A model generated the notes under the pieces. That model had not been told where the DNA came from, searched no databases, and saw only the letters and a program-made list of their open reading frames with translations. Shown here piece by piece: positions 6,176-49,547 of a stretch of DNA of 64,000 bases. The first letter of the stretch is position 1, and the number at the start of each line of letters is the position of its first letter. The position numbers were made by a program, and so were the translations under genes. Source of the DNA: Minisyncoccota bacterium (GTDB lineage: Bacteria > Patescibacteriota > Minisyncoccia > Phycocordibacterales > Phycocordibacteraceae); the NCBI GenBank assembly GCA_018062765.1, contig JAGORR010000001.1, positions 356,930-420,929 on the forward strand. Reading direction: 5' to 3'.

Positions 6176-6712
6176 ATGTCATTCGCGGACCCGCGAGAGA
6201 ATGTTCTGCAGATAGGCCTTCATGACGGCATGAAGGTGGGAGACTTGGGCGCTGGATCGGGTCACTACGCGCTTGCTGCAGCTGGCGCCGTCGGAGACAC
6301 CGGTCGCGTGTACGCGATCGATGTCCAGGAGGAAGTCGTCATGCATATAAGGGACGCGGCACATCGCGCAGGGCTCAAGAATGTCGAGACGATATGGGGA
6401 GACTTCGAACGCCCTGGCGGCACCAAGCTTAAGGACGGAGTCCTCGATGCTGCCATACTCTCGAATGTCATGTTCCAGGTGGAGCATCATACGAGCGCGA
6501 TCTCGGAGGTGAAGCGCATCGTGCATCCTGGCGGAAAGGTGCTTGTCATCGACTGGGCGGGTTCCTACGGGCACTTGGGGCCTCATCCGGACCAGGTCGT
6601 TCCTGAGTCAGAAGCAGAGCGATTGTTTATACAGGCAGGATTCCACAAGGCGAAGAGTTTTCGCGCAGGTCCCCATCACTACGGTATCCTGTTTACGACA
6701 CCCGCCTCATGA
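6176..6712 (+). CDS. Class I SAM-dependent methyltransferase
   Basis: VGDLGAGSGHYAL SAM-binding motif I; start placed at the MSFADP Met at 6176, because the upstream part of the track ORF overlaps the palindrome and promoter region. Confidence 0.65.
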   Translation: MSFADPRENVLQIGLHDGMKVGDLGAGSGHYALAAAGAVGDTGRVYAIDVQEEVVMHIRDAAHRAGLKNVETIWGDFERPGGTKLKDGVLDAAILSNVMFQVEHHTSAISEVKRIVHPGGKVLVIDWAGSYGHLGPHPDQVVPESEAERLFIQAGFHKAKSFRAGPHHYGILFTTPAS

Positions 6713-8007
6713 TGCCGAACCTGAACATTCGTCCGTTCCAACTCATCGTGATCTCCGTCTTCGGAGTACTGGCGCTCGTAGGTGTGTTCGTGTTCGCCAC
6801 CTACGAGCGCAACGCAACAGGAAGCACGAGTGCGGGCAAAGTAGTTATCTGGGGCATTATCCCCGAGCGCGAGATGCAGGGGGCGATGGAGGAGCTGACG
6901 CGAAACAGCGACTATCGCAACGTGTCGTATCTGTACGTGCGGCCCGAAGCATTCGCTTCAGAGCTTGCGAACGCGCTTGCTGAGGGTAATGGCCCCGATC
7001 TGGTACTTATCTCCCAAGAGGAGCTCGCAAGCCAAGAGTCGAAGCTCTCGCTCATCTCTTTCAAGTCCGTTCCGGAAAGGACGTATCGTGATATGTACGC
7101 CACCATATTCGAGATATTCCTTACGAATGAGGGCACATACGGATTCCCGCTCGCGCTCGACCCTATGGTCATGTATTACAATCGACAAACGCTCGCGAAC
7201 GCAGGCATCGCGACGCCGCCCACAACCTGGGCCGGGATACGCGGTCTCGTGGACACGCTTACGAGCCGGCAAGGGGATACTGTCGCGAAGTCGGCAATAC
7301 CCTTCGGGAGCTACGGGAACGTGGATAATGCGCGCGGAATTATCTCGACCCTGTTCTTGCAGGCAGGCTCGCGTCTCTCCGAGCGAGGCACGAGCGGCAT
7401 ACGCGCCACATTCACTAGCGACGCGGGTGGAGGAAGCCCGGTCCAATCCGCTCTTCTCTTTTATGCAGAGTTCGCTGACCCGGTGAAGCCGTTTTATACT
7501 TGGAACAGCGCGCGCGAATCGTCCCGACAAGCGTTTCTTTCTGGAACCTTGGCGTTCTACCCGGGCTACGCGTCGGAGGCGCGTTCCCTAGCCGCAGCAA
7601 ACCCTAATCTCGACTTTGATATGGCGCGCATGCCGCAGCCGGAGGCAGGCGGCACTAAGGCGGTGTACGCGAAAGCATACGCGCTCGCGATAACCAAGGT
7701 ATCGCGCAATTACCACGGGGCATTCTCTGCAGCGCTCGGGCTTACGGAGGCCCGCATAATGTCGCTTGCTGCGCAGAGTGCCGGTCTAGCACCTGCCATG
7801 CGCACCCTGATAGCGAAGCCGCCCGCGGACCTCTACTCACCGGTCTTCTATCCGGATGCGCTCATTGCGCGCGGTTGGCTCTCCCCAGCGCCCTCCGTCA
7901 CGGACGGCATCTTCGCTGGTATGATGCAGAACGTGACTTCAGGACGCTTTACTATCGCGCAAGCAATCAAGTATGCGTCAGATTCCATCGACGCGTCGTT
8001 AAGGTAA
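6709..8007 (+). CDS. Membrane-anchored extracellular solute-binding protein (ABC-type SBP family 1-like)
   Basis: 432 aa; N-terminal TM anchor then a periplasmic-binding-protein-like sequence; ATGA overlap with the upstream gene; no cognate permease or ATPase adjacent. Confidence 0.45.
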   Translation: MMPNLNIRPFQLIVISVFGVLALVGVFVFATYERNATGSTSAGKVVIWGIIPEREMQGAMEELTRNSDYRNVSYLYVRPEAFASELANALAEGNGPDLVLISQEELASQESKLSLISFKSVPERTYRDMYATIFEIFLTNEGTYGFPLALDPMVMYYNRQTLANAGIATPPTTWAGIRGLVDTLTSRQGDTVAKSAIPFGSYGNVDNARGIISTLFLQAGSRLSERGTSGIRATFTSDAGGGSPVQSALLFYAEFADPVKPFYTWNSARESSRQAFLSGTLAFYPGYASEARSLAAANPNLDFDMARMPQPEAGGTKAVYAKAYALAITKVSRNYHGAFSAALGLTEARIMSLAAQSAGLAPAMRTLIAKPPADLYSPVFYPDALIARGWLSPAPSVTDGIFAGMMQNVTSGRFTIAQAIKYASDSIDASLR

Positions 8008-8011
8008 GGCA

Positions 8012-8464
8012 ATGAAACGCACAGCCATCTTCGTTTCTGCACTCTTGCTGACTCTTTCAGCGATGTCCGCCCCAGTGTACGCGCAGGACATGAATCTTGG
8101 GGGTGGAGCGACCGGTAACGCTAGTACCAATCTCGGCGGAGGTCCGTCAGGTAACGGTACCAATCTGGGGGGAGGCTCTCAGGGGTGCGGATTCCTTTTG
8201 AATCCACTCGACAACGAGTGCAATAGCGACATGACGCTCAATGATCTCCTTAGCAAAATATTGAACGTCATCGTCCAGATAGGTGTAGTCGTGCTCACTA
8301 TGATGCTCGTCTACGTTGGTTTTCTCTTTGTCACTGCCCAAGGGAACCCGGAAAATCTTTCCAAGGCCCGGAGCGCACTCATATGGACGATAATCGGCGG
8401 CTTCCTCGTGCTTGGCGCGAGCGTCATTGCAGAGGCGGTTAAGTCGACGGTTGAAGCGCTCTGA
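8012..8464 (+). CDS. TrbC/VirB2-type pilin-like protein (paralog 1 of 5)
   Basis: Signal peptide, Gly/Asn-rich low-complexity segment, then two TM helices separated by NPENLSKARSAL; the same motif occurs in the 22412 and 23928 proteins. Confidence 0.6.
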   Translation: MKRTAIFVSALLLTLSAMSAPVYAQDMNLGGGATGNASTNLGGGPSGNGTNLGGGSQGCGFLLNPLDNECNSDMTLNDLLSKILNVIVQIGVVVLTMMLVYVGFLFVTAQGNPENLSKARSALIWTIIGGFLVLGASVIAEAVKSTVEAL

Positions 8465-8465
8465 T

Positions 8466-8738
8466 ATGGACGGCGAGGAGGTTATCGTCGTGGGACAGAA
8501 AGGCACCTTCGCCTCGATGGTGTACAAGTTCACCGGCTTCATTGACTCCAGTATTATCCCGTTATTGTTTGCGGCCGCATTCCTCGCGATGCTGGTGGGC
8601 ATATTTCGCTATTTCATGATTCCGGGCGAGGAGAATTTGCAGAAGGGTCGCCAGTTTTTGCTGTGGGGCGGTATCGCTTTTGTGTTCATGTTCCTTATCT
8701 GGGGGCTCGTAAACCTACTCCTCGATTCGGTATTCTAG
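8466..8738 (+). CDS. TrbC/VirB2-type pilin-like protein (paralog 2)
   Basis: 90 aa; two TM helices flanking EENLQKGRQFLLWGGIAFVFMFLIWGLVNLL; ATG lies 1 nt after the paralog-1 stop. Confidence 0.55.
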   Translation: MDGEEVIVVGQKGTFASMVYKFTGFIDSSIIPLLFAAAFLAMLVGIFRYFMIPGEENLQKGRQFLLWGGIAFVFMFLIWGLVNLLLDSVF

Positions 8739-8786
8739 CTGTTTATAAGTACACATAGCCTGGCTCAGTACTGATACGCTAAACGT

Positions 8787-9215
8787 ATGAAAAAGACATT
8801 CTCCGCCCTATTGTTTTCACTAGCGCTCATGTTCACACTTACACCGTCCATTGCCTTTGCGCAGGGCCAGCAGCAGCCGCAACCTGATCAGCAGGGCACG
8901 GGTGAGTCACAGCCGAGCGAGCTCGAGCTTCGTATCGGATGGCTTCTCGACTTCGTCGATGGGTACGTCATTCCGCTCATATTCGGACTCGCATTCGTCG
9001 TATTCATCTGGTTCGTGTTCGTGTACTTCATCCTTGGCGGAGCTGAGGAAGAGCAGCGCGCTAAAGGAAAGCAGTTCCTGTTGTGGAGTCTTATTGGGTT
9101 CGTACTCATGCTCTCCTTGTGGGGTATCGTGAACCTGCTTCAGAACACCATAGGATTCGATAATAACTCCAAGCCGTGTCTGCCGGTGTTCGAACAGGAC
9201 AACGAAGACTGCTAA
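8787..9215 (+). CDS. TrbC/VirB2-type pilin-like protein (paralog 3)
   Basis: Signal peptide, Gln/Pro-rich region, two TM helices with EEQRAKGKQFLLWSLIGFVLMLSLWGIVNLL. Confidence 0.6.
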   Translation: MKKTFSALLFSLALMFTLTPSIAFAQGQQQPQPDQQGTGESQPSELELRIGWLLDFVDGYVIPLIFGLAFVVFIWFVFVYFILGGAEEEQRAKGKQFLLWSLIGFVLMLSLWGIVNLLQNTIGFDNNSKPCLPVFEQDNEDC

Positions 9216-9299
9216 TGCGGTTGTCCCCACAGTGCACCCCATACGATTGACTTCGCGCCAAAGCCGCTTACCCTTAGTACATATCCGCTTACCACTGCT

Positions 9300-9689
9300 A
9301 TGAAGAAAATTCTCTTGCTCGTCGCTCTGTTCACCATCCCGGCCATTGCGTTCGCGCAGTTTGGCGAAGGCGGTAATAATCAGGACCTTGGCGATCTCGG
9401 TCAGGAGTTCACTGACATCATCAATAACATCGCGGTTCCGCTTATCTTCGCGCTCGCGTTCGTCATCTTTATTTGGGGAGTATTCAAGTACTTCATTCTT
9501 GGTGGCGGAGACGAGGAGGCTCGCGAGAAAGGTCGCGACCTCATGATTTGGGGACTTCTGGGATTCTTCTTCATGATTTCAGTCTGGGGACTCGTGAATC
9601 TCGTCGTGAACACCATCGACCTGGAGCAAAGCGGAGCACCGGACGAAAATGACTTGCCGGACGCTCCGGGAGTCAGGGACTCGAACTAA
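9300..9689 (+). CDS. TrbC/VirB2-type pilin-like protein (paralog 4)
   Basis: Signal peptide, two TM helices with EEAREKGRDLMIWGLLGFFFMISVWGLVNLV. Confidence 0.6.
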   Translation: MKKILLLVALFTIPAIAFAQFGEGGNNQDLGDLGQEFTDIINNIAVPLIFALAFVIFIWGVFKYFILGGGDEEAREKGRDLMIWGLLGFFFMISVWGLVNLVVNTIDLEQSGAPDENDLPDAPGVRDSN

Positions 9690-9705
9690 CTCATAGTGTA
9701 GGCGA

Positions 9706-9730
9706 AAAGACCCGCTCGGCGGGTCTTTTG
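9706..9730 (+). terminator. Intrinsic terminator AAAAGACCCGC-tcg-GCGGGTCTTTT
   Basis: Hairpin plus T-tract after paralog 4. Confidence 0.6.
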
Positions 9731-9783
9731 CTATCCCCGATTAGTACGTGCCATAGATGAGTGCGGATATATACTGAACAGTA

Positions 9784-10053
9784 ATGAACGAAAGAGTAGA
9801 GATACCGCTTCTTGAGGGCATCAAAACGCAGATAGTGAATCCCATCATCACGCTTCTAGCGCTTGGAGCATTTGTAATGTTTCTTTGGGGTCTCGTCGTA
9901 TTCATATGGAATGCCGGGGATGCGGAGGCGCAGTCGACGGGGAAGCGCGTCATGCTGTGGGGTGTCATTGGGCTTGTTGTCATATTCGGTGCGTGGAGCA
10001 TTGTGGAGCTTATCGGAAGCACGATAGGGGTAGACCCAAATCAGTACCGGTAA
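9784..10053 (+). CDS. TrbC/VirB2-type pilin-like protein (paralog 5)
   Basis: 89 aa; two TM helices with AEAQSTGKRVMLWGVIGLVVIFGAWSIVELI. Confidence 0.55.
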   Translation: MNERVEIPLLEGIKTQIVNPIITLLALGAFVMFLWGLVVFIWNAGDAEAQSTGKRVMLWGVIGLVVIFGAWSIVELIGSTIGVDPNQYR

Positions 10054-10103
10054 AGAAGAAGGCCGCCGTCACCATCAGGTGCGGCGGCCTCAAGAGGAAA
10101 GAA

Positions 10104-10610
10104 CTAGTTCGGACCTTCTATCCAGTAATGGAAGACGAAGGGTTCTGCTGTAGAGCTTCGGATGCGAAATCCATCAGCAAACTCGCAGCCTTCTGCTGTC
10201 CAGTTGATCCAGGCTTCATGCACGTAGCACTGGGCCTCGTAGCCGCTCGTCTCTAGCACGTGAAGATCAGCGGCAGGGCAGTTTCTCGGCATCCAAAGCT
10301 CGGGAGCATGCGACCAGTCGTCTGGGGACGACTTGGCCGGAGCTATTCGCGCCTGGGGTCTCGTCTCGCCACTTGGCTTGCCGCAGATTGTTGGCACGTT
10401 TAAGCGCTCATCTTGAGACGAACTTCTGTAGCCACGCTCATTTGTAGCCTGCGTCGGATTCGATTCACCCCAAAACTGGAAGTGGTAGCCTAAGAATCCG
10501 AGCACGCTCAGAGCGATCGTAACCCAAAGCGCAATGTCCCACATGAAGGAATTGCCGCTCTTCTTCGCCTCACCAGGCGAGCCTGCTGAGGGTGTAGCGT
10601 GAGATGCCAC
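10104..10610 (-). CDS. Membrane-anchored hypothetical protein with a Cys-containing C-terminal domain
   Basis: 168 aa; one TM helix (WDIALWVTIALSVLGFLGY); directly downstream of the SPFH gene on the same strand. Confidence 0.4.
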   Translation of the reverse strand: MASHATPSAGSPGEAKKSGNSFMWDIALWVTIALSVLGFLGYHFQFWGESNPTQATNERGYRSSSQDERLNVPTICGKPSGETRPQARIAPAKSSPDDWSHAPELWMPRNCPAADLHVLETSGYEAQCYVHEAWINWTAEGCEFADGFRIRSSTAEPFVFHYWIEGPN

Positions 10611-10621
10611 AAGTTACTCCT

Positions 10622-11860
10622 TCAGATGTTCTTGGTTGCATTATGGCCGACAGCGGCGTCGAGAAGGCTGTTGCCGCTCGACTGCACGATGACCTTTTTT
10701 GCAGTCCCGCGCCGGGCTTGTACCCGGTCGAGAGCCTCGGTCAAGGTCATGATAGACTCCTTTGTTTTTTCAGAAGACTTTTCGGACGCCGCGACGAGCT
10801 TGAGCGCTTGCTCGAGTTCGGCATCGCTGTCCTTATCCTCGGCACGCTTCTCTGCGTCTTCCGCTGCGGCCTTGTTCTGTGCCAGTAGCATCACAGCATC
10901 TGGAGTGAGACGCGCGACGTTGAATCGCGTGATCTTAACACCAAGCTGCCGTACGTCACCGACACCGTTCGCAACCGCAGTGTTGAGGAAGAACTCAATC
11001 TCCTTCTCAACCTCGCGTTGCGCGGCGCGCTGCTCCTTCGCTTCGAGGCCCGCGCCTGCCTCAAGGAAGTAGGCTACGGGGTCGTCGATCGCTTTAAGCG
11101 TTCCGTCCTGAGTCTTCGCCTCGTAGTTCGTGGCAGTGATACCGAGACGTTTGATCTGCGCTTCGTCGACTTTCCCGCTTGCGTCGCGAGGAAGCTCAGC
11201 CATCTTGGTGTTCGCGATCATCGTGATGAGCTGAACGGATAGTGGAAGCTTGAGGAACAGGAACTGCTCCCAGGTATGGAAGAGTGCTGCACCACGCATG
11301 GCCTCCTTCGTCATGCCTTCAACGATGCTTCGGACGCCGTTCATGAGGCCGCTCTTGATCAACTCCTTCATGCGCTGAGGCCCGATCGGTCTTCCGCTGT
11401 CGTCCTTGGCTTCATGGTCTGGCTCGATCGTAAGATCGACCTTCACATCCACGGAACCGCCCGCGGTCTGTTTGCCCTCCTTGTCGGTCGCCTTGCAGGT
11501 GACCGAGAATGGGGCAAATTCGACATCGAGACGGGTTACGTCAATTGGTATCAGGCCGATTTCAAACGGCAGGTAGTCTGCCGTCATGTAGTCGCCTGGT
11601 CCGACGAGGATGTCCTGCGGTTCGCCATAGCAAGTCACCAAGGCGACATGCTGCGGCTTGGCAGAGACGTTCGTTTTCCAGCCCATCTTCACCATGAGGA
11701 TTCCGAGAGTGGCAAAGCTGACACCCATGAGGTAGTTCCCGTCGACTCGGTAGGCGAGAAACGCACAGAGCGCGCCGACCGCCATAAGTATGACGGCGAT
11801 GCGCCACAACTTCGAACTGAAGTCAGGACCGACTATGTATTGGCTTACAAGGTTCTTCAT
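10622..11860 (-). CDS. SPFH/band-7 (stomatin/flotillin-like) domain protein
   Basis: 412 aa; N-terminal TM helix, SPFH-like core and a Glu/Ala/Lys-rich coiled-coil C-terminus. Confidence 0.6.
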   Translation of the reverse strand: MKNLVSQYIVGPDFSSKLWRIAVILMAVGALCAFLAYRVDGNYLMGVSFATLGILMVKMGWKTNVSAKPQHVALVTCYGEPQDILVGPGDYMTADYLPFEIGLIPIDVTRLDVEFAPFSVTCKATDKEGKQTAGGSVDVKVDLTIEPDHEAKDDSGRPIGPQRMKELIKSGLMNGVRSIVEGMTKEAMRGAALFHTWEQFLFLKLPLSVQLITMIANTKMAELPRDASGKVDEAQIKRLGITATNYEAKTQDGTLKAIDDPVAYFLEAGAGLEAKEQRAAQREVEKEIEFFLNTAVANGVGDVRQLGVKITRFNVARLTPDAVMLLAQNKAAAEDAEKRAEDKDSDAELEQALKLVAASEKSSEKTKESIMTLTEALDRVQARRGTAKKVIVQSSGNSLLDAAVGHNATKNI

Positions 11861-12252: not shown

Positions 12253-12282
12253 CTCTGCGCCAGGCTTGTGTCTGGTTACGTG

Positions 12283-12364
12283 TGCTGGGGAGGAGACTTG
12301 AACTCCTAACCCGTGAGGGACATGGTCCTAAGCCATGCGCGTATACCAATTCCGCCACCCCAGC
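12283..12364 (-). tRNA. tRNA-Leu (anticodon TAG), class II with a long variable arm
   Basis: Manual fold: acceptor GCTGGGG/CCCCAGC, D stem GCG/CGC, anticodon stem CATGG/CCATG with loop CTTAGGA, T arm AGGAG-TTCAAGT-CTCCT, discriminator A. Confidence 0.8.
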
Positions 12365-12406
12365 GTCCTTCACAGAATACTACGATTTGTTATATTGCGT
12401 TCTGTC

Positions 12407-12479
12407 GCGCCTATAGCTCAGTTGGTAGAGCAGATCCCTCTTAAGGATAAGGTCCCTGGTTCGAGCCCAGGTAGGCGCA
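12407..12479 (+). tRNA. tRNA-Lys (anticodon CTT)
   Basis: Manual fold: acceptor GCGCCTA/TAGGCGC, D arm GCTC-AGTTGGTA-GAGC, anticodon loop CTCTTAA, T arm CCTGG-TTCGAGC-CCAGG. Confidence 0.85.
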
Positions 12480-12486
12480 CTAACAC

Positions 12487-22411: not shown

Positions 22412-23368
22412 ATGCGCCGCTTGGCACTTTACCTCCTCGCAGCTTCTCTCATACCGCTTGCCGCGGCGGCACAAGGGCTTCCGTCAGGCTCAATCATCCC
22501 GGACCTCGATGAGGGAGATCAGAACCTGCGCACGTGCGCTGCAGGTTGGAAGGCGGTTCTCATAATATCGGGAGGGTTCCTAGAGCTCGCAATTTACATC
22601 GCGATGCTTATCGCCGTTCTCGTTATCGTCTATGCAGGGATTATATTCCTGTTTAATGCGACAAACCCCGAGAACCTGTCGAAAGGGAAAAAGATTCTTG
22701 GAAACGCGGCGATTGGTCTTCTTATTACGCTTTGCGCATGGCTACTTGTGAATACGGTGCTCACAAGCCTGGGCGCAGGAGACATCGCAAGCCGCACAAG
22801 CGTCATAGGTTCAGGCGGCTCGCTCTGTATCACGATACAACCTCCGCAATCTCAAATACCAACCAGTCAGGAAGTAGCTGCCGGTTTGCCACTGGCACCA
22901 CCTCCTCGAGGTACCGGCTCGTGTGACCCGATTGCTGTGCGCGCAGCCGCAGCGGCCGGTGGGTACCAAATCTCGGAGCGAGAGGCGAACACATTTGCCT
23001 GCCTTGCAGGTCCCGAGAGCTCGTGCGGCGCAAATGTCGATGGTGCGACGACGCCTTCTGGGCAGCGTACGAGTGCAGCGGGTCCGTGGCAGAACATTCT
23101 TGGTTTTAAGGATAAGTGCCACTCACTCAACATCCCCGCCTGTGGCAACTTGCAGTGTCACCAGGCATTTTCAGGCGGAGTGGAGAAGTCTGATCCGGCC
23201 TCGAGAGCTCTCGCTGCCAAGTGTCGTCAGGCACTTGCAAACCTTACGTGCGCTGCCGCCGCAGCCGTGTGTCTTAATAACGCGAGCGGAAACGACTTCA
23301 GCGACTGGACTGCGGATTCGCGCAGCTCGAAACAGAAGAAGTGTATTCGCGACCATGCGGGGCTCTAG
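22412..23368 (+). CDS. Pilin-domain protein (TrbC/VirB2-like two-TM module) with a C-terminal Cys-rich extracellular domain
   Basis: 318 aa; signal peptide; TM-NPENLSKGKKIL-TM module like the paralogs at 8012 and 23928; about 200-aa C-terminal region with at least 14 Cys. Confidence 0.5.
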   Translation: MRRLALYLLAASLIPLAAAAQGLPSGSIIPDLDEGDQNLRTCAAGWKAVLIISGGFLELAIYIAMLIAVLVIVYAGIIFLFNATNPENLSKGKKILGNAAIGLLITLCAWLLVNTVLTSLGAGDIASRTSVIGSGGSLCITIQPPQSQIPTSQEVAAGLPLAPPPRGTGSCDPIAVRAAAAAGGYQISEREANTFACLAGPESSCGANVDGATTPSGQRTSAAGPWQNILGFKDKCHSLNIPACGNLQCHQAFSGGVEKSDPASRALAAKCRQALANLTCAAAAAVCLNNASGNDFSDWTADSRSSKQKKCIRDHAGL

Positions 23369-23383
23369 CGCTATACTTTACCT

Positions 23384-23926
23384 ATGAGCCGAACAGCCTT
23401 TTGGATACTCGCACTCGCATCGGTTGGGCTTTTGGCTGCTGGCACACTTTTCTATCTCAATTTGAATCCTGAGCCGGAAGCTCCTCCCATGGTAACTCCT
23501 GACCCATTTGGGAGTACTAACGATGGCGTAATTATTACGGCCGTGGGCGGGGAGGACATACGCGCTCGTGACTTCGTTAACGATGGCGAGACTGAACCTG
23601 ATCCCGGTAATCCCGGAACGTACTTCCTTGCCGGTTATTTCGGCTACTGCGACGGGGACGAGGAGTGTGAACCTATTGCAACAAGCGACTTCAACATTAA
23701 GTACGATAGCAAGATTGATGCCTTCACGATCGGTCTTGCCACCGAGCCGATAGGTGAAGTTAGGAAGCGTGCAGAAGCATTTCTAATGAAGAAGCTCGGG
23801 ATTGGGGAAAATGATATGTGTGCACTCAATTACTATGTCGGCACTTCGTATTGGGTAAATGAAACTTACTCGGGAGGTAATCTTGGGTGGAGTTTCTGTC
23901 CCGGCTCCATAGCACTTCCTGACTAG
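23384..23926 (+). CDS. Secreted/anchored hypothetical protein
   Basis: 180 aa; N-terminal hydrophobic signal/anchor; no recognisable domain. Confidence 0.4.
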   Translation: MSRTAFWILALASVGLLAAGTLFYLNLNPEPEAPPMVTPDPFGSTNDGVIITAVGGEDIRARDFVNDGETEPDPGNPGTYFLAGYFGYCDGDEECEPIATSDFNIKYDSKIDAFTIGLATEPIGEVRKRAEAFLMKKLGIGENDMCALNYYVGTSYWVNETYSGGNLGWSFCPGSIALPD

Positions 23927-23927
23927 T

Positions 23928-24839
23928 ATGCGACGTACTACGACATTGCTCCTGCTTCTCCCGTTGCTACTTACAGCTATGCCCGCGCATGCGCAGTTCA
24001 CCGAGGGCTGGACCATCGTCCCGGCAGCGTGCCATTCGTGCCCTGCGGCTTGGGTTTGCGTACTTGAGATGCTCAACAATCTGGTGACGCTCATCATGAC
24101 CATCGCGGTCTTAATCGTCGTACTCGTCATCACCTACGCCGGCATCCTGCTTGTGTTTACTGCGACGAACCCCGAGAACAAGAGCAAAGCAAAAAGCATG
24201 CTTATTAATGCTGCGGTAGGTCTCGTCATCGCTCTTGGCGCGTGGCTCATCATCGATAAGGTCCTCGAGTCTTTGGGTGCGGGCGGTATAGACGAGACAA
24301 CGCGCGTTATTGGTACCGGTGGCAGCGCATGTGTTGTTGCTCAGGATCCGATCACTGAGCCGCCTGAGGGAACGGATCCATCGCCTATTACTCCCGGTCC
24401 TGGCGGTGGAGGCAGCGGCGCTAATTGCCCGGTCCCGGCGGCGTCCGGGATGGTGGCATTCCCTGCGGAGGCTACAAGCGGTGAAACTGAATACGCAACA
24501 CCGAGTACGGTCGAGAACTTCCTTGCGATGCGCGCCGCAGCGCTTGCCGATGGAATTGACATTAAGGTGACTGACGGATATCGGTCCGAAGCCGAACAGG
24601 TTCAGTTATGGTATCGCTACAATCAGGACACGAGCCAAGTCGCAAGGCCGTGTACGCTAGGTGGCAGCGGTTCAAACCACAACTCAGGTGTCGCTCTGGA
24701 CCTCACCGTCGGCTGTAGAAAGACAGATAGTTCCTGTGATAGCGCCCAATACCGATGGCTTAAAGCAAATGGTTCTCAGTGGGGCTTCAACAACAATTTG
24801 CCTACCGATACGGTGCACTGGTCACCATCGGGTCGCTAG
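23928..24839 (+). CDS. Fusion of a pilin-type two-TM module with an M15 (VanY-like) D-Ala-D-Ala carboxypeptidase domain
   Basis: N-terminus TM-NPENKSKAKSML-TM; C-terminus contains ...DGYRSEAEQVQLW...SNHNSGVALDL, the hallmark Zn-peptidase M15 motifs (SxHxxGxAxD). Confidence 0.55.
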   Translation: MRRTTTLLLLLPLLLTAMPAHAQFTEGWTIVPAACHSCPAAWVCVLEMLNNLVTLIMTIAVLIVVLVITYAGILLVFTATNPENKSKAKSMLINAAVGLVIALGAWLIIDKVLESLGAGGIDETTRVIGTGGSACVVAQDPITEPPEGTDPSPITPGPGGGGSGANCPVPAASGMVAFPAEATSGETEYATPSTVENFLAMRAAALADGIDIKVTDGYRSEAEQVQLWYRYNQDTSQVARPCTLGGSGSNHNSGVALDLTVGCRKTDSSCDSAQYRWLKANGSQWGFNNNLPTDTVHWSPSGR

Positions 24840-41963: not shown

Positions 41964-42296
41964 ATGAACATACTCATCCGTTGGCTGCTGTTCGCTCTCG
42001 CTATCTACGTATCTGCATATGTCGTGCCGGACGTGGAGACGACCGTGCCCGCCGCCTTCGTGCTCGCGATCGTACTGGGCCTCATCAATGCGTTCCTGAA
42101 GCCGATTCTCGTGCTTCTGACGCTCCCCATAACGATCGTCACGCTCGGTCTCTTCGCGCTCGTCCTCAACGCACTCCTCGTCATGCTCGCGGACGCCATC
42201 GTGCCTGGGTTCGAGACAGCTGGATTCATTTCAGCGCTCCTGTTCTCAATCGTGCTTGCGCTGGTCGGCTATGTACTGAAGCGCTTCGATGATTAA
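41964..42296 (+). CDS. Phage-holin-4-2 / DUF360 family membrane protein
   Basis: 110 aa; 3-4 TM helices; sequence pattern typical of the DUF360 family. Confidence 0.5.
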   Translation: MNILIRWLLFALAIYVSAYVVPDVETTVPAAFVLAIVLGLINAFLKPILVLLTLPITIVTLGLFALVLNALLVMLADAIVPGFETAGFISALLFSIVLALVGYVLKRFDD

Positions 42297-42989: not shown

Positions 42990-45731
42990 ATGGAGGGAAC
43001 ACGGCAGCTTACGACTCCCGAGGAGGAGCTTGCCTACTTGCGTGCGCAAGTAGAGGAGAAAGAACGCGAGCTCGCGGGGCGCGCGCAGGAAGCACCGCGC
43101 AACACTCTCGTGCACGAGCGTATCCTTCATCACCGGCGCGAGATGCCAGAGACGGTGCTCGCTCCGTCCTACAAGCTACCTGAAGCTGAAGTGGAAGGCA
43201 TCGCGCTGGATCTCGATCCGGATGATAACGACGCAACGATGGCGGAACTTCAGGGAATCATGGAGGAGAAGGGTATCAAGAATGCGCTCTCGGTCCTTGA
43301 AAAGCTCCGGAATCCGCATCTCGATGACGACTTCCATCGATTCCTGGTGCAGTACGTCGTCGCTGGAATGCAGGTGAAGGGGCTCGGGGAACGGGAACCA
43401 GCATGGAAGGCGCTCCACATGACTCTCTACGAGGTCATCCTTCCGGAGCCCGGCAAGGACTCGGACGCGCGAGAGAAGACCTTGAAGGAACTCATCTCCT
43501 CGATGGAGCAGTTCTATGCAGGCATGCTCTCGGTGGGGGATGCGAGCGCGAGCGAGCCGGGCTATTTCTCGATGGAGCTCGCTGTTCCCGCTAATCGTCC
43601 GGAGCTCCTTTTCTATGTCGCTGTGCCTAACGGCAAGCGCGCGCTCTTTGAGCAGCAGCTCTTGGCAACCTTTCCGAACGCGAACATTCGTCCGCAGCCG
43701 AACGATTACAACATATTCAGCGAGGATGGCGTTGCCGTAGGCGCCTCTGCGACGCTAGCTGACAAAGGCGTGCTTCCTCTCAAGGATTATGCTGATTTCG
43801 ACTACGACCCGTTGAATACGGTTCTGGGTGCCTTCGCGAAGATCGAGAAGGCGAGCGAGGGAGCGGCGCTCCAAGTCATCATCGAGCGCGATACGCACCA
43901 CCTGGAACATTACCGCCGGATACTCGGAGCGCTCCGTCGCGGCGAATCGAAGGATCGTGCGCTCTCGATGCCGGAGACATTCGTGGGCGAGGCCGCGCGC
44001 GAGATCGGGTCAGCGCTCTTCCCGGGCTCACGCAAATGGGAGAACGAAGTTGAGAAGAGAGCCGAAAGGAAAGATGGGAACCAGGCTTTGATTGAGCAGA
44101 TAGAGAAGAAGATCGCAGCTCCCATCGTAAAGACGACGCTCCGTCTCATGGTGTCCTCGCCGACCCACACCCGCGCGGAGTCAGGGCTCGCGGACCTTGA
44201 GGCGGCATTCAATCAGTTCACCAACACCGTAGGCAACAAAATCAACTGGAATCGGTTCTCAGGCACCAAGGTACAGAGCCTTTTCCATGCATTCTCTTAC
44301 CGTTTGCCGGCGAAGGACGCGATACCGCTTTCTCTTCGAGAGGTCACGAGCCTCTACCACTTCCCGCCCGAGGGCATCAGCTCTACGCCGCAACTCCGGC
44401 AGTCGCGCTTCACTGCGGCCGCTGCGCCCTTGGATCTCCCTGACTCGGGGACGTATCTCGGGGATAACGAGTTCCGCGGACGGAAGACTGCGGCATTCCT
44501 GTCGCCGGAGGACCGCATGCGGCACCTCTATGTCGTCGGACAGACGGGAACCGGTAAGTCGGTATTCATGAGGAATCTCGCCATACAGGACATCAAGGCA
44601 GGGAACGGCGTCTGCTTCATCGACCCCCACGGGAACGACATCCTCGATATCCTCGCGGCTGTACCTCCCGAGAGATACGAGGATGTCATCTATTTCGATC
44701 CGGCGAACCTGGCGCGTCCGTTCGGCCTCAACTTGCTTGAATACGATGCGAGCCGCCCAGAGCAGAAAACCTTCATCGTTAATGAGATCCTCGCGATATT
44801 CCGCCGCCTCTACGGGGACGTGCCGGAGTCGATGGGTCCTGCGTTCGAGCAGTACTTCCGCAACTCAACCCTCCTGGTGATGGAGGACCCGGCATCGGGC
44901 TCGACCTTACTCGATATCGCGCGAGTCCTTTCGAACAAGGAGTTCCGCGACCTGAAACTCTCGCGAAGTAATAATCCGGTCATAAACCAGTTCTGGAACG
45001 AGATAGCGACGAAGGCTGAAGGAGAGGCATCGCTTCAAAACATCGTTCCGTACATCACTAACAAGTTCGATGACTTCACCGCGAACGACTTCATGCGGCC
45101 AATCGTCGGGCAGCAGGAATCCTCGTTCAAATTCCGTGAGGTGATGGACAACAAGAAGATACTCCTTGTGAACCTCTCTAAAGGAAGGCTCGGGGAACGA
45201 AACGCCAACCTCCTGGGCCTCATCCTCGTCGGGAAGATATTCATGGCTGCGCTCTCTCGTGCAGATAACCCGAGGGCAGACTACGCGCCGTTCTACCTCT
45301 ATATCGACGAATTCCAGAACATAACTACGGACTCCATACCGGGAATCCTCTCCGAGGCTCGCAAATACCGGCTTTCGCTTACCATGGCGCACCAGTTTCT
45401 GGCGCAGGTGGATGAGAAGGTGCGGGATGCCGTGTTCGGGAACGTCGGCTCCATGGCCGTGTTCCGCGTCGGCGAGGAAGATGGCGAGTACTTCGAGAAG
45501 CAGTTCGCGCCGGTGTTCTCCGCGCTCGATTTCGTGAACATAGAGAATTACAACGCGTACGTCAGACTCCTTGCGCGCGGCGTGCCGCAGAAGCCATTCA
45601 ATATAAAGACGCCGCCACCGGCCGCCACGAACCCTGCGCAGGTGGACGACCTCAGAGAGCTCTCAGCACTCGTCTACGGCCGCGACCGTACACAGGTGGA
45701 AAACCTTATCAGAAGCAGGTACATGTCATAA
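42990..45731 (+). CDS. Large P-loop NTPase, T4SS-type (VirB4/TraC/TraD-like) or HerA/DUF87-like, with an N-terminal ~480-aa domain of unknown function
   Basis: 913 aa; Walker A GQTGTGKSVF and Walker B LYIDEFQN in the C-terminal half; no N-terminal TM helices. Confidence 0.5.
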   Translation: MEGTRQLTTPEEELAYLRAQVEEKERELAGRAQEAPRNTLVHERILHHRREMPETVLAPSYKLPEAEVEGIALDLDPDDNDATMAELQGIMEEKGIKNALSVLEKLRNPHLDDDFHRFLVQYVVAGMQVKGLGEREPAWKALHMTLYEVILPEPGKDSDAREKTLKELISSMEQFYAGMLSVGDASASEPGYFSMELAVPANRPELLFYVAVPNGKRALFEQQLLATFPNANIRPQPNDYNIFSEDGVAVGASATLADKGVLPLKDYADFDYDPLNTVLGAFAKIEKASEGAALQVIIERDTHHLEHYRRILGALRRGESKDRALSMPETFVGEAAREIGSALFPGSRKWENEVEKRAERKDGNQALIEQIEKKIAAPIVKTTLRLMVSSPTHTRAESGLADLEAAFNQFTNTVGNKINWNRFSGTKVQSLFHAFSYRLPAKDAIPLSLREVTSLYHFPPEGISSTPQLRQSRFTAAAAPLDLPDSGTYLGDNEFRGRKTAAFLSPEDRMRHLYVVGQTGTGKSVFMRNLAIQDIKAGNGVCFIDPHGNDILDILAAVPPERYEDVIYFDPANLARPFGLNLLEYDASRPEQKTFIVNEILAIFRRLYGDVPESMGPAFEQYFRNSTLLVMEDPASGSTLLDIARVLSNKEFRDLKLSRSNNPVINQFWNEIATKAEGEASLQNIVPYITNKFDDFTANDFMRPIVGQQESSFKFREVMDNKKILLVNLSKGRLGERNANLLGLILVGKIFMAALSRADNPRADYAPFYLYIDEFQNITTDSIPGILSEARKYRLSLTMAHQFLAQVDEKVRDAVFGNVGSMAVFRVGEEDGEYFEKQFAPVFSALDFVNIENYNAYVRLLARGVPQKPFNIKTPPPAATNPAQVDDLRELSALVYGRDRTQVENLIRSRYMS

Positions 45732-45743
45732 TCACAGCTATAT

Positions 45744-48700
45744 ATGGCAGGCGAGGGTCCAGGAAACGGTAATGGCAGCAAGCTCGCGGAGCAGCTTGCG
45801 AAACTCGTCGAGCAGAAAGGCCTTCAAGGGATGGCAGTCGCTGATGCTGGTGAGGAACAGGTGCCTGCTCAAGTTGCCACCCCCGCTGTTGTTGAACAGC
45901 ATGAAGTGCCCGTTTCCAGCTACGATGAGGCAGCGGTCTCGAAAGCGCACAAGCGATTCACCGCGCTCATAAGGGGGCTTGAGAAACACCCCGAGATACA
46001 GGTACGTCCTGATGCGCTTGCGAGCCTGAAGACGGCATTCGATGCTATGGGTAAGGCAAAAGGCAGGCTGAAGGCTATGGATGACGCGAATGAAGTGAAT
46101 CACGAACGCCGTAAGAAACAGTTGGATATCATCCAGGCATCGTTTTCCGTGATATTCGGAGAAATCGGAAACGAAGTATCCGAAGGGCTGCGCCCGGTCG
46201 ATGGGACTGCGACAGGAAGGAACGAGGCCACTTCGCGCGACGAAGTGGATACGCGCTACTATCCGCTCGCAGATGAGATTTTCGCAAAGGGGTATAACCC
46301 GAATGAGCTCGAATCGTGGCGAAACATCGCTAAGCGAGTCAAAAGGCCGATTCCAGGAAAGCCTTACAACCCGGGGATATCGCTTACTGATCGCGAGATA
46401 CGCGCGGTTCGCGCCGAACTTGCCAAACTCGAGCAGAAGGACCCGATAGTGCTTCCGACTAAAGCTGCGTCAGAACCAGCACCGCAAGTGCCGCGCGAGC
46501 GGGCACGAAAGCCAAAGCGATCGGAAAAGGATCGCGAGTCACGCGCGATTCGCGATGAACCAAGCATATACGACTCACCTGGCCCGATGCGCCGTACCGA
46601 CATGGACCGCATTGATCCTGCGGTCGTATCAGGGGTAGTTGGAACGTTTGACACGAATGCTCCTGATACGGTTACGGAGCCTTCTGGAGCGGATGCCGCC
46701 TCTGAACTCGACGTCGAGCCTGCTATTCACGACAGCACGCCGAGGCTCCCTGCGGATAAGTTCAAGGATGCGACCCCGAAGAGCGTACGCGAGAGTCTGC
46801 GCCGTTCGATACTGAGTATCAAAGAGCTGCCGCCTACGGAAATGCCAGCCGGGGCTATCGATACCTTGCCGCCTGACCTCGGGTTGAGAACCACTACTCC
46901 CGCAAGAGCGGAAGCGCTGAGGTCCGTAGTCACCCCGCCCGGATCGATAGACACGCTTCCTCCGGTCATCGATACTGCGCCGCAAGCATCTGCAGCCCCA
47001 GAGCCTGTGCTGGTTGCGGAGGTAGATCCGGACGCCGCTGATGCGGCACTTGCGCACGCCGTGTTCCCGAGTGCGTCAACGGAAGGTGTAGCAAATCTTC
47101 CCGCAGTGGTGAATTCGGAAGCTACGCCTACATGGCAGCCGCTCTCGGAGCAAGGTCTCACGCAAGAAGAACTTGTGCATCGGCGTGCTGAGCGCCGTGT
47201 GCAGATTGGCGTCGAGGCTGGCCTTACACAGGAGCTTGGCGACATGTACAACGCACGCGAAGCGTACCTCACTGCGTACCGGGCATTTTATGCGAATAAC
47301 AACCTGGCTGCGCGCGCTGCAGTACAGGCAACGAATTCCACCGAGTGGCAGAACTTGAAGCGACTTGAGGCTGCCTCGGCGACAGCAAGCCTTGCATACC
47401 AGCAAGCACTCGAGCGTTCCGCGACGGAACGGCTAACGGCTAACGCGCCTGAGCGCGAGGCGCTGCTACGTGCAAAGGGAGAGGCCAGGTACCTACTTCT
47501 TGTCGGCGTCGGCTGGAATGCGCCGCGGTACGAAGACGGCCGGCTGATGTCTAAAGAGGACTACGTGAACCAGTACATGACGCAGTACCAGGGCCGCGTA
47601 CTCGATCGCTACATGTCTACTATTGCGTGGCGCGAAGTCACAGCCGGGAACGAGAACGCACGCATCGAGACTCGTGCGGAGGCGCTAGGAGCAAAACAAC
47701 GCAACGTCTTCGATAGGATGCGCTCGTTGGTCCAGGCAACGAACCAGGGACTCGAACGGACGCTTACTCCGACGGGCGCTCGCGCATTCCGTATCGTCGC
47801 AGCTGCGGGCGTCGGTACCGTGCTTGGCGGGTGGGCAGCAGGTGCGATGCGTGGTGCCTCGGTTATCGCAGGTATGCTCACTGGCTCCACCGCGGGTGCG
47901 GCAGCAGGCTCCTTGTTCCAGCGTCTCGTGGGTGCGCGCCGGGCAGCTGCCGTTGATACTGTGCGACACTCGCGTATCACAAGTGCCGCAGACTTAACAG
48001 CGGCAGCTGCTGCGTTCCGCAAGGGTGACGCTGCGCAAATAGCAGCTACGCGAAGGCGTTGGGAGATGGGCGTCGCGCTCGGCGTCGCCTTCCTTACGGC
48101 ACGTTCTATGCCGGGACTAGAGCCCGTCGTTACTAGCTCCCTTAGCGATTTGAGGCGCATCGGCGGAGAGATTATGGGAACAGGCGAGAGCGCCGGCGCG
48201 ACAGCGGCCGTACCCACTGGTGGCGAGTCAGCGTCGCCTTCGTCAGCGGTCACGGGAGGCGCTGGCGGCAGTGAAGGCCAGTCTGCGCCTGTCGCCGGGG
48301 GTGAGAGCGGTACGGGAAGCGGAGCACCAAGAGCAGGCGGTGAAGGCTCCGGGGGCGCAGCTCCGCTCGACTCATCCGTGCCGCCACCTGCGAACAATCC
48401 AGGCCCTGCGGGGAGTCCCTTCGGACGCATTCCGGTACCGACGGATTCCGTTCCGCAGGCGGACGCTATCGGGGGATTCGCTCGTGAGTCGGCGATAATC
48501 TCGGGCGGTAACGGAGGTGACGCCGTGTCGAGTGAAGGACTCGACGATATGCGCGCAGTTGCGGCCGAAGTGCGCGGCACCTCGACAGAATACGTGGCAC
48601 GTTCAGGTGACGGCGGCATTAAGCTCGTCGAAGGTCTCCAGCAGCAGCTTGCGCGCGAGGGCATCACTGAGACGACACCAGGCATTTCAGCTATGACGCG

Positions 48701-49547
48701 TGAGATAGCATCGGCTGATACGAATGCGGAAGCCGAGGCAGTCGCGAAGAAATACGGACTCTACAAGCCAGGGGTCACCGATGAGAGTGCAGCAATCGGT
48801 AAGGAAGCTCGAATCAGGATAGACGGAGAGAAGCTCGTGCTTACGGACGCAAAAGGCGAGGCAGTTTTCATAGACGAGAAGAATCCATATAGCGGAAAGA
48901 TGTTTGATAGCAATCCACCACCTCCTGTTCGTGAGATTCCACCGGAAACAAGGGCTTCCGGTGAACGCGTAGCTCCAAGTGAGGCGCCACCACCTGCTCA
49001 AAGAGAAGTAGTCTCGAGCGCAGGACAAGAGCAGATAGTTCCAAGAGAGGAGCCTCCTCGAGTAGCTGGTCAAACGAAGTCCTATTGGGACATGACAGAA
49101 GTCGAGAAGACGCAGCACCTGAACCGACTCTCGATAGCGGACGCGCGACAGGCACGTCTCGATTGGGAGGACTACGCACGTAAGTATGACGCGTATCTCG
49201 AAGAGGTGGCACGCGAGAGGGGAGTTCCTGCAGCCGCGGTTGTGGGAAGTGCTCCCGTCGCGTCCCCCGCTGCCATCGAACGCGATCTTCAACCGGTACG
49301 TGTAGACGCCTCACCAACGCCTGCGTCAGAACCTGCGCCTTCGGCGGCAAAACCCGCACCAGAGCCAGTTCGTCCTGTACCGTCTCCGGAAGGACCACCG
49401 CGCGATACCATTTCTACCGACGAAGCGATCCGTCAATTCGGCGATCCGCAGGCAGCGGCGTCACGAGGAGCAACGCCGACGCCAGCAGCGAGCGAGTCGA
49501 TAACCACGGACGAGGCTATTAACCAGCTTCGTGCGCAGAAGAAGTAA
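45744..49547 (+). CDS. Giant low-complexity protein (1267 aa; Ala/Glu/Pro/Gly-rich; central Gly-rich hydrophobic segment; Pro-rich C-terminus)
   Basis: Single uninterrupted ORF starting 13 nt after the ATPase gene; the internal antisense ORFs are GC-artefacts. Confidence 0.5.
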   Translation: MAGEGPGNGNGSKLAEQLAKLVEQKGLQGMAVADAGEEQVPAQVATPAVVEQHEVPVSSYDEAAVSKAHKRFTALIRGLEKHPEIQVRPDALASLKTAFDAMGKAKGRLKAMDDANEVNHERRKKQLDIIQASFSVIFGEIGNEVSEGLRPVDGTATGRNEATSRDEVDTRYYPLADEIFAKGYNPNELESWRNIAKRVKRPIPGKPYNPGISLTDREIRAVRAELAKLEQKDPIVLPTKAASEPAPQVPRERARKPKRSEKDRESRAIRDEPSIYDSPGPMRRTDMDRIDPAVVSGVVGTFDTNAPDTVTEPSGADAASELDVEPAIHDSTPRLPADKFKDATPKSVRESLRRSILSIKELPPTEMPAGAIDTLPPDLGLRTTTPARAEALRSVVTPPGSIDTLPPVIDTAPQASAAPEPVLVAEVDPDAADAALAHAVFPSASTEGVANLPAVVNSEATPTWQPLSEQGLTQEELVHRRAERRVQIGVEAGLTQELGDMYNAREAYLTAYRAFYANNNLAARAAVQATNSTEWQNLKRLEAASATASLAYQQALERSATERLTANAPEREALLRAKGEARYLLLVGVGWNAPRYEDGRLMSKEDYVNQYMTQYQGRVLDRYMSTIAWREVTAGNENARIETRAEALGAKQRNVFDRMRSLVQATNQGLERTLTPTGARAFRIVAAAGVGTVLGGWAAGAMRGASVIAGMLTGSTAGAAAGSLFQRLVGARRAAAVDTVRHSRITSAADLTAAAAAFRKGDAAQIAATRRRWEMGVALGVAFLTARSMPGLEPVVTSSLSDLRRIGGEIMGTGESAGATAAVPTGGESASPSSAVTGGAGGSEGQSAPVAGGESGTGSGAPRAGGEGSGGAAPLDSSVPPPANNPGPAGSPFGRIPVPTDSVPQADAIGGFARESAIISGGNGGDAVSSEGLDDMRAVAAEVRGTSTEYVARSGDGGIKLVEGLQQQLAREGITETTPGISAMTREIASADTNAEAEAVAKKYGLYKPGVTDESAAIGKEARIRIDGEKLVLTDAKGEAVFIDEKNPYSGKMFDSNPPPPVREIPPETRASGERVAPSEAPPPAQREVVSSAGQEQIVPREEPPRVAGQTKSYWDMTEVEKTQHLNRLSIADARQARLDWEDYARKYDAYLEEVARERGVPAAAVVGSAPVASPAAIERDLQPVRVDASPTPASEPAPSAAKPAPEPVRPVPSPEGPPRDTISTDEAIRQFGDPQAAASRGATPTPAASESITTDEAINQLRAQKK

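Follow-up and report, generated by a model that had tools for sequence, protein, structure and literature searches.

A tandem array of five VirB2-like pilin genes on a Minisyncoccota contig

Five consecutive forward-strand genes in a 64,000-nt stretch of contig JAGORR010000001.1 from a Minisyncoccota bacterium (the whole stretch is called the window here, and all coordinates are window positions; Table 1) encode, as judged from their sequences, distinct proteins of the VirB2/TrbC pilin superfamily (Pfam family PF18895) whose divergence is ancient. Tandem arrays of VirB2-like pilins in Patescibacteria have already been published, and the present locus is a further, previously unannotated example, the NCBI records of the five proteins (MBP6859964-68, locus tags KBC38_00130-00150, from a metagenome-assembled genome labelled 'Candidatus Pacebacteria bacterium') all reading 'hypothetical protein'. 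Three features go beyond the published array descriptions (PMC10633639, PMC12102498), namely the fixed order of five subunits with positional orthology between genomes, the separate transcription unit predicted for gene 4, and the location of the cassette after a methyltransferase gene and a MalE-like binding-protein gene, away from any VirB4 found within 64 kb. The interpretation we favour, and regard as reasonably probable, is that the array supplies a five-subunit VirB2-type set with the gene 4 product as its major component and the others as accessories, from which a type IV secretion system (T4SS) encoded elsewhere assembles a filament or conduit for host contact.

Family assignment and hairpin architecture of the five proteins

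A preliminary description of this DNA had proposed five consecutive same-strand genes of 89-150 amino acids (aa) for TrbC/VirB2-type pilins, and both the gene arrangement and, with hidden Markov models (HMMs), the family assignment are borne out. All five proteins exceed the curated gathering cut-off of PF18895 (T4SS_pilin, 26.6 bits), with scores of 47.9, 26.9, 37.6, 43.2 and 39.7 bits for genes 1-5, gene 2 doing so only barely. PF04956 (TrbC/VirB2, curated cut-off 27.9 bits) is matched by gene 1 at 32.8 bits and, below threshold, by gene 5 at 12.3 bits, with no match for genes 2-4. A VirB2-like pilin array in Patescibacteria has been defined as at least two PF18895/PF04956 genes that are in tandem or have one gene between them (PMC12102498), and the five tandem genes seen here therefore fall within that definition. 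The assignment is also consistent with a profile-profile alignment by hhalign, in which a Patescibacterial family profile of 123 sequences was compared with six annotated plasmid VirB2/TrbC proteins of mating-pair formation class T (MPF_T), each encoded between a lytic transglycosylase gene and virB3. The resulting alignment (probability 74.8%, E 2.6e-5, 82 columns) keeps its register across the A-x-A-Q cleavage site and both helices.

More distant similarity extends to NCBIfam NF045849 (Mbov_0395 pilin-like conjugal transfer protein, curated cut-off 40 bits), against which genes 1-5 score 23.6-31.6 bits. The window encodes seven PF18895 proteins in total, including two fusion proteins described below, and all of them match this 80-residue profile end to end at 21-34 bits, below threshold; the five array genes are thus related to NF045849 but are not members of it. 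The neighbouring family of NF045849 in the integrative and conjugative elements (ICEs) of Mycoplasma is VirB4 (NF045975). Faint NCBIfam matches to the pLS20_p028 transmembrane protein were also seen. Searching 5.8 billion proteins with a profile yielded 645 relatives; among the 120 relatives listed, the source names are all of Patescibacteria type (Paceibacterota, Minisyncoccia, Parcubacteria) except for one Rectinemataceae, and several are named 'pilin' by NCBI. Searching 72,556 plasmids with gene 1 by tblastn gave no match, the family profile found only chance-level matches among PDB sequences, and fold searches with a model of the hairpin monomer were non-specific.

Kyte-Doolittle hydropathy reveals two hydrophobic segments of transmembrane (TM) length in all five proteins (residues 90-108 and 122-140 in protein 1), in agreement with the hydrophobic two-helix hairpin proposed earlier. 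An AlphaFold2 model of protein 4, built from the family alignment, has a mean predicted local distance difference test score (pLDDT) of 74.7 and consists of a leader helix (residues 3-21) followed by a hairpin of helices 31-66 and 72-109 (pLDDT 81-91). Signal peptides had been claimed for proteins 1, 3 and 4, and it is these three that have an additional N-terminal signal-like segment ending A-x-A|Q, where cleavage is predicted. The claimed turn motif stands in part: a charged turn is present and K-G-R/K and L/M-x-W-G occur in most copies, but the strict pattern does not hold, only one Glu being invariant in the seven copies. After the leader, protein 1 has the three NLGGG repeats and protein 3 the Q/P-rich stretch that had been noticed before. 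Identity to gene 4 over the hairpin domain is 21% for gene 1, 43% for gene 2, 54% for gene 3 and 35% for gene 5.

The start of gene 2 is most likely the ATG at 8466, because this start agrees with public gene calls on identical contigs and gives a junction with the -4/+1 nt spacing typical of the related loci; an alternative TTG start at 8412 would open a 108-aa reading frame overlapping gene 1. Antisense open reading frames (ORFs) at 8147-8602 and 9741-10022 are treated as spurious since they overlap conserved coding sequence. TRF found no DNA-level tandem repeat in the array region, and an Rfam scan of the region was empty. The array has a slightly lower G+C content and a T-rich skew, which fit hydrophobic coding and are not by themselves a sign of foreign DNA.

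Table 1. Features of the array, its upstream genes, associated signals and possible partners (window positions)
Feature	Position	Strand	Description
Methyltransferase gene	6176..6712	+	Class I S-adenosylmethionine-dependent methyltransferase; Methyltransf_31/11/25; 178 aa call on an identical public contig
Binding-protein gene	6709..8007	+	MalE-like solute-binding protein, 432 aa; PF13416 58.9 bits, PF01547 54.6 bits
Gene 1	8012..8464	+	150 aa; Sec leader, N/G-rich variable region, 3x NLGGG, two Cys, hairpin
Gene 2	8466..8738	+	90 aa; without leader; two TM segments; 1-nt gap after gene 1
Gene 3	8787..9215	+	142 aa; Sec leader, Q/P-rich segment, hairpin, tail with P-C-L-P and second Cys
Gene 4 promoter region (predicted)	9221..9274	+	TTGTCCCCA box at 9221-9229
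Gene 4 -35 element (predicted)	9247-9252	+	TTGACT, then 16-nt spacer and -10 TACCCT at 9269-9274
Gene 4	9300..9689	+	129 aa; leader MKK...AFA|Q, hairpin, short acidic/proline tail; candidate major subunit
Terminator-like hairpin after gene 4	9701..9736	+	Hairpin and T tract; minimum free energy (MFE) -20.7 kcal/mol, z -2.9
Promoter-like site, gene 5	9748..9775	+	GTGCCA-16-TATACT, 8 nt before ATG; consensus scan only
Gene 5	9784..10053	+	89 aa; without leader; minimal hairpin, two TM segments
GC-rich hairpin after gene 5	10060..10090	+	MFE -30.7 kcal/mol within the first 70 nt past the stop; convergent genes flank
Pilin-hairpin fusion, possibly associated	22412..23368	+	Sec leader, PF18895 36.8 bits, proline-rich linker, Cys-rich C-terminal domain
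Pilin-hairpin/M15 fusion, possibly associated	23928..24839	+	Sec leader, PF18895 43.8 bits, linker, PF02557 VanY 50.9 bits
P-loop ATPase, coupling-protein type, possibly associated	42990..45731	+	913 aa; TraG/VirD4/TraD type

Positional orthology and predicted transcription units

Gene 4 orthologues, used as queries against 185,579 species-representative genomes, yielded 80 related loci, a set that, being seeded in this way, is biased to one sub-lineage of Paceibacteria. The titles of the loci are mostly Paceibacteria, Parcubacteria, Kaiserbacteria or Patescibacteria, the rest being 'uncultured Candidatus Saccharibacteria', 'uncultured bacterium' and, once, 'Bacillota'. Many metagenome-assembled genomes with a Paceibacteria-type cassette and synteny are labelled 'uncultured Candidatus Saccharibacteria bacterium', and these labels look default or wrong. 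As judged with a local HMM, PF18895-like ORFs stand in an unbroken row of 4-7, mostly 5, in every locus not cut by a contig end, and their sizes follow the same pattern. Orthology, gaps and hairpins were counted in the 48 of the 80 loci that have exactly five array genes.

The best match of an array gene in another genome is the gene at the same position in 46/48 cases for positions 1-3 and in 48/48 for positions 4 and 5, and the median same-position scores (87-140 bits) compare with a median of 51 bits between paralogues. The five genes therefore represent five old and distinct orthologous groups, with no recent expansion or shuffling. Gene 4 is the most conserved position, with a median of 140 bits as against 87-105 bits for the other positions. 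These results disagree with the earlier view of the genes as diversifying paralogs, and the hypervariability between strains that had been put forward as a check is likewise absent from the single comparison, the array being nucleotide-identical (100%) in the one strain variant found. When species are compared, two parts vary, namely the stretch that follows the leader in protein 1 and the C-terminal tail in protein 3. Counted with its leader, the N-terminal region of protein 1 has a median length of 62 aa and a maximum of 262 aa and is G/T/A/S/N/P-rich across genomes, while the protein 3 tail ranges from 12 to 124 aa with its P-C-L-P motif conserved.

Spacing and sequence signals within the array are also conserved. 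At the junction of genes 1 and 2 the median gap is -4 nt (+1 nt here), and upstream of gene 4 it is 90 nt. In each of the 30 related loci listed, a TTGTCCACA-like box, a -35 element TTGAC(G/T) and a -10 element TA(T/C)CCT align within the gap between genes 3 and 4, the box, TT(G/T)TCC(A/C)CA, lying just past the gene 3 stop and ~20 nt upstream of the gene 4 -35. When the 80 loci (1.2 Mb) are searched for this pattern, TTKTCCMCA, 49 of the 66 matches fall inside the array on the + strand; elsewhere in the window there is one further match, which is at chance level. The box is thus highly specific to this site, and it could serve for the binding of a regulator or be an UP-like element. Within the 60 nt downstream of gene 4, a strong GC hairpin with a T tract is present in 46/48 genomes (median -28.7 kcal/mol); one follows gene 5 in 45/48, as compared with only 2-12/48 after genes 1-3. 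Several related loci have TGCTATGAT-like extended -10 elements past the gene 4 hairpin, recognized by eye.

We read these predicted signals as at least three transcription units, one comprising the methyltransferase gene, the binding-protein gene and genes 1-3, a second gene 4 alone and a third gene 5 alone. This suggests that gene 4, which is the most conserved of the five and has a conserved predicted promoter of its own as well as a terminator-like hairpin behind it, encodes the major subunit, likely one of high abundance.

Upstream genes and possible partners in the window

The methyltransferase gene is the first of a conserved unit and overlaps the start of the binding-protein gene by 4 nt. 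As claimed before, the binding-protein gene (stop 8007) is separated from gene 1 (start 8012) by a 4-nt gap, with AAGGTAAGG just upstream of gene 1, where a ribosome-binding site had been proposed. Co-transcription, also suggested earlier, is plausible, and the adjacency is widespread, the methyltransferase gene lying upstream of the cassette in 69/80 loci and the binding-protein gene in 72/80. The binding protein has a single N-terminal TM segment (residues 12-30) and distant matches to MalE and other sugar-binding proteins in the PDB; family scans of the neighbouring genes found no adjacent ABC permease or ATPase gene.

The binding-protein gene is also where the strain variant (L001, ENA ERZ27275549 k141_138928) differs. 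All differences map to window 6688-7908, almost wholly in this gene, amounting to ~191 differences in 1296 nt of coding sequence (dS 0.78, dN/dS 0.045, 92% aa identity). The variant contig begins just before the start of the gene, its differences lie within the first 1.2 kb, and the following 4.5 kb, comprising the five pilin genes, orf168 and orf412, are 100% identical. The divergence represents either an allele imported by recombination, with a boundary ~100 nt before the stop, or a chimeric metagenome contig.

In most loci the cassette lies between gyrA and rbfA/infB/clpB. Housekeeping genes of the window comprise gyrA, infB, rbfA, clpB, miaA, parB, relA/spoT, topA, dprA, serS, dnaX, tgt, uvrABC and ddl, together with eight tRNA genes, and no integrase or relaxase was found in the window. 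A mobile-element origin was rejected in view of the housekeeping flanks and the synteny in most loci. Immediately downstream, at 10104-11860 on the minus strand, two genes without family matches form a small variable spot in the otherwise syntenic region, between the cassette and a tRNA-Leu/tRNA-Lys pair at 12282-12480. One, orf168 (0/80 loci), encodes a Cys/Trp-rich single-TM protein of 146-168 aa; the other, orf412 (5/80 loci), a single-TM protein of 412 aa with a coiled-coil-like C-terminal part. At 41964-42296 a 110-aa protein matches Phage_holin_4_2 at 102.6 bits, in a chromosomal context that does not look like a prophage.

The preliminary description had further proposed a distributed surface-filament system joining the array, the locus at 22412-24839 and an ATPase at 42990. 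The first connection gains from the two additional PF18895 domains at 22412-24839, which belong to the fusion proteins listed in Table 1. The product of 23928-24839 is named an M15 family metallopeptidase by NCBI. The C-terminal domain of the 22412-23368 product has no Pfam match at E <= 10, no SLT match and no match in a word-indexed homologue search, and an exhaustive HMMER search retrieved 85 homologue clusters. Of 53 aligned relatives, 49 carry PF18895, three PF18896 (SLT_3) and one PF01464 (SLT), and the family, almost always fused to the pilin hairpin, shows hardly any variation in an E-S pair and in a G-x-F-Q-I motif. We read these motifs as lytic-transglycosylase-like, the domain being probably lysozyme/SLT-like, and the locus thus seems to encode two putative wall hydrolases tethered by a pilin hairpin. 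Between the two fusion genes, 23384-23926 encodes a 180-aa single-TM protein of unknown family.

The connection to the ATPase found no such backing. This protein, the only T4SS-type ATPase in the window and 33 kb from the array, shows weak DUF87, TraG-D_C and T4SS-DNA_transf matches and a match to the P-loop of TrwB; its best NCBIfam matches, TraD and CD1115 VirD4-like, are far below their cut-offs. It has no TM segment, and ~500 N-terminal residues are without a family match. Its sequence is coupling-protein-like (TraD/VirD4/TrwB) and not that of a VirB4, the NCBI name is likewise of coupling-protein type, and nothing links it to the pilins. Beginning 12 nt after the ATPase gene (locus 42990-49547) is the gene for a 1267-aa Ala/Pro/Glu-rich, low-complexity soluble protein with no family or PDB match; the idea that it is an extended VirB6 was rejected on account of its lack of any TM segment.

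Mechanism, alternatives and relation to known systems

In the scheme that we infer, which spans leader cleavage, topology, extraction, polymerisation, stoichiometry and the links to VirB4 and the binding protein, proteins 1, 3 and 4 would be exported by cleavable Sec leaders (A-x-A|Q), and proteins 2 and 5 would insert without a leader. Each would span the membrane as a hairpin whose two ends face outwards and whose charged turn (E..KGR/K) lies in the cytoplasm, as indicated by hydropathy and a structural model of moderate confidence. An outside-facing C terminus fits, because the two fusion proteins carry peptidoglycan-hydrolase-type domains C-terminal to the hairpin. By analogy with VirB2, a VirB4-type T4SS encoded elsewhere would extract the pilins from the membrane pool, and they would then be assembled into a surface filament or conduit for contact with the host cell. 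Protein 4 would be its major building block and proteins 1, 2, 3 and 5 accessory subunits of lower abundance; in protein 1 the low-complexity N-terminal region, which varies between species, would be exposed outside, and in protein 3 the C-terminal tail with its Cys. Genes 1-3 are probably co-transcribed with the methyltransferase and MalE-like binding-protein genes, and the two fusions at 22412-24839 may supply wall-cutting activity at the same site.

Several observations weigh against this interpretation. VirB4, VirB3 and VirB6 were not detected with Pfam or NCBIfam among the scanned proteins of the 64-kb window, a set that took in all ORFs from about 160 aa upwards. The probability given by hhalign is moderate, and scores of this kind can be raised by TM composition. 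Synteny extends over the whole neighbourhood in the clade, which makes adjacency to the binding-protein gene weak functional evidence, and the putative role of gene 4 as major subunit is read from its conservation and from patterns of promoter- and terminator-like signals. Finally, no such pilus has been seen in any Patescibacterium, and reviews speak of the 'potential to elaborate conjugative pili' (PMC12857230).

The closest competing explanation, to which we assign a clearly smaller though appreciable likelihood, is that the five proteins are VirB2-superfamily parts that stay in the membrane, within a monoderm-type T4SS channel or another envelope complex, and that no extracellular filament is formed. 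The end-to-end NF045849 matches of all five and of both fusions offer a possible parallel in the Mycoplasma ICE proteins, the faint pLS20_p028 matches point in the same direction, T4SSs of Gram-positive bacteria are mostly without pili (PMC10633639, PMC12102498), and the hairpin of the fusion proteins looks like a membrane anchor for an enzyme. However, the NF045849 scores are below the cut-off and the role of the Mycoplasma proteins is itself unknown, and the predicted stand-alone promoter and terminator of gene 4, together with five fixed subunit types, fit a filament with major and minor subunits better. We think it improbable that the array instead belongs to a T4SS-independent envelope complex formed with the probably co-transcribed MalE-like protein, for example an uptake or adhesion device for host contact. 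Such a device would account for a membrane-anchored binding protein that lacks an adjacent ABC permease or ATPase gene, for the position of its gene directly before the pilins in 72/80 loci (4 nt away here) and for the lack of a VirB4 within 64 kb; but the synteny from gyrA to clpB makes the adjacency weak evidence, the Southlakia array lies in a T4SS cluster beside a VirB6-like gene and not beside a binding-protein gene, and VirB4 is reported to be widespread in Patescibacteria and, in Paceibacteria, often to lie near dnaA, which is outside the present window (PMC12102498).

Even less credible to us is a variation device, in which the copies would be alternative pilins for host-range or surface switching, as proposed for Bartonella and Anaplasma. 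The 21-54% hairpin identity to gene 4 matches the values given in the study that raises the idea (25% mean, 54% maximum; PMC12102498), and the extensions of proteins 1 and 3 differ between species. Yet the same-position best matches in 46-48 of 48 genomes indicate that the copies are old and not interchangeable, the array is 100% nucleotide-identical in one strain variant, and no DNA repeats that could drive recombination were found. The comparative results thus argue against the published idea that the arrays serve mainly for variation. Finally, we see hardly any chance that the five are small hydrophobic proteins with no relation to pilins (holin-, bacteriocin- or toxin-like) for which the HMM matches merely reflect TM composition. 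Matches to other small membrane families do occur, very weakly (E 0.03-0.8), and helical hairpins are structurally non-specific; against this, all five proteins exceed a curated threshold, the alignment to VirB2 is in register including the cleavage site, positional conservation is deep, and homologues are essential in Southlakia.

A bolder reading, which we put forward only tentatively and consider unlikely as a whole, is a heteromeric VirB2-type filament or conduit of five subunits in a monoderm bacterium, genetically uncoupled from the virB4 cluster and built jointly with the MalE-like protein and the two pilin-tethered hydrolases. Such a structure would serve contact with the host, for attachment to the cell surface of the host or uptake from it, and would not be a conjugation pilus, with protein 4 forming the shaft and proteins 1 and 3 providing species-specific exposed parts.

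The T4SS-type pilins of Patescibacteria, which are monoderm and host-dependent, pose a problem that the field acknowledges, and they are essential in the single species tested; the present locus leaves that picture unchanged. What it adds are handles, namely a fixed set of five orthologues, a candidate major subunit with a predicted promoter and terminator, and two hydrolase-type fusions, and the results indicate which gene to tag, deplete or model first.

The best-studied relative is the six-gene PF18895 array of Southlakia epibionticum (SEML1_0014-0019), which is essential for epibiotic growth (Wang 2023, PMC10633639 and its supplement), lies inside a T4SS cluster and adjoins a VirB6-like gene. 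Quinonero-Coronel et al. 2025 (PMC12102498), who used PF04956 and PF18895 to search 3,035 genomes, found VirB2-like pilins in 1,948 assemblies, of which 1,135 have them close to virB4, so that such proximity is not obligatory, and 441 arrays of 2-11 genes each in 383 Patescibacteria assemblies; they suggest that the arrays give versatility towards different hosts. The present array resembles those of Southlakia and other Patescibacteria (PMC12102498) in its tandem same-strand genes for PF18895 (in some cases PF04956) hairpins of ~90-185 aa, its low identity between copies (21-54% here), its chromosomal location in a genome of the candidate phyla radiation (CPR) and the lack of a nearby relaxase gene. 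It differs from the Southlakia array in having five copies instead of six, in not being in or next to a virB4 cluster, and in its position between gyrA and infB, where it follows the genes for a methyltransferase and a MalE-like protein. According to PMC12102498, coupling-protein homologues are common in Patescibacteria and usually not near virB4, the Southlakia one not being essential. In Southlakia, essential peptidase and lysozyme genes lie beside virB4; the tethered hydrolases at 22412-24839 would resemble in function the VirB1 of monoderm T4SSs, which has two domains.

Compared with the VirB2/TrbC pilins of Agrobacterium and of plasmids, the present proteins share the small pre-protein, the A-x-A-Q leader (genes 1, 3 and 4) and two helices joined by a short turn. 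MPF_T systems, however, have one pilin gene between virB1 and virB3, whereas there are five here without an adjacent virB1 or virB3, and, unlike the Gram-negative MPF_T hosts, the present host is described in the literature as monoderm, so that there is no outer membrane to span. The Mbov_0395/MMCAP2_0565 proteins of Mycoplasma ICEs (NF045849) share with the present ones a monoderm or wall-less host, and their hairpin profile is matched end to end; their genes are single-copy and on a mobile element, whereas the present cassette is chromosomal and fivefold, with scores below the cut-off. Patescibacterial VirB4 is related to the MPF_FATA type (PMC12102498), and the profile matches hint that VirB2-like hairpins already exist in monoderm systems of this type, which bears on the published question of the origin of Patescibacterial pilins. 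The array also recalls the amplified VirB2 paralogues of Bartonella and Anaplasma T4SSs in that several divergent genes of the VirB2 family stand side by side; for those arrays a role in antigenic or host-range variation is assumed, whereas here the positions are orthologous and the one strain variant found is identical.

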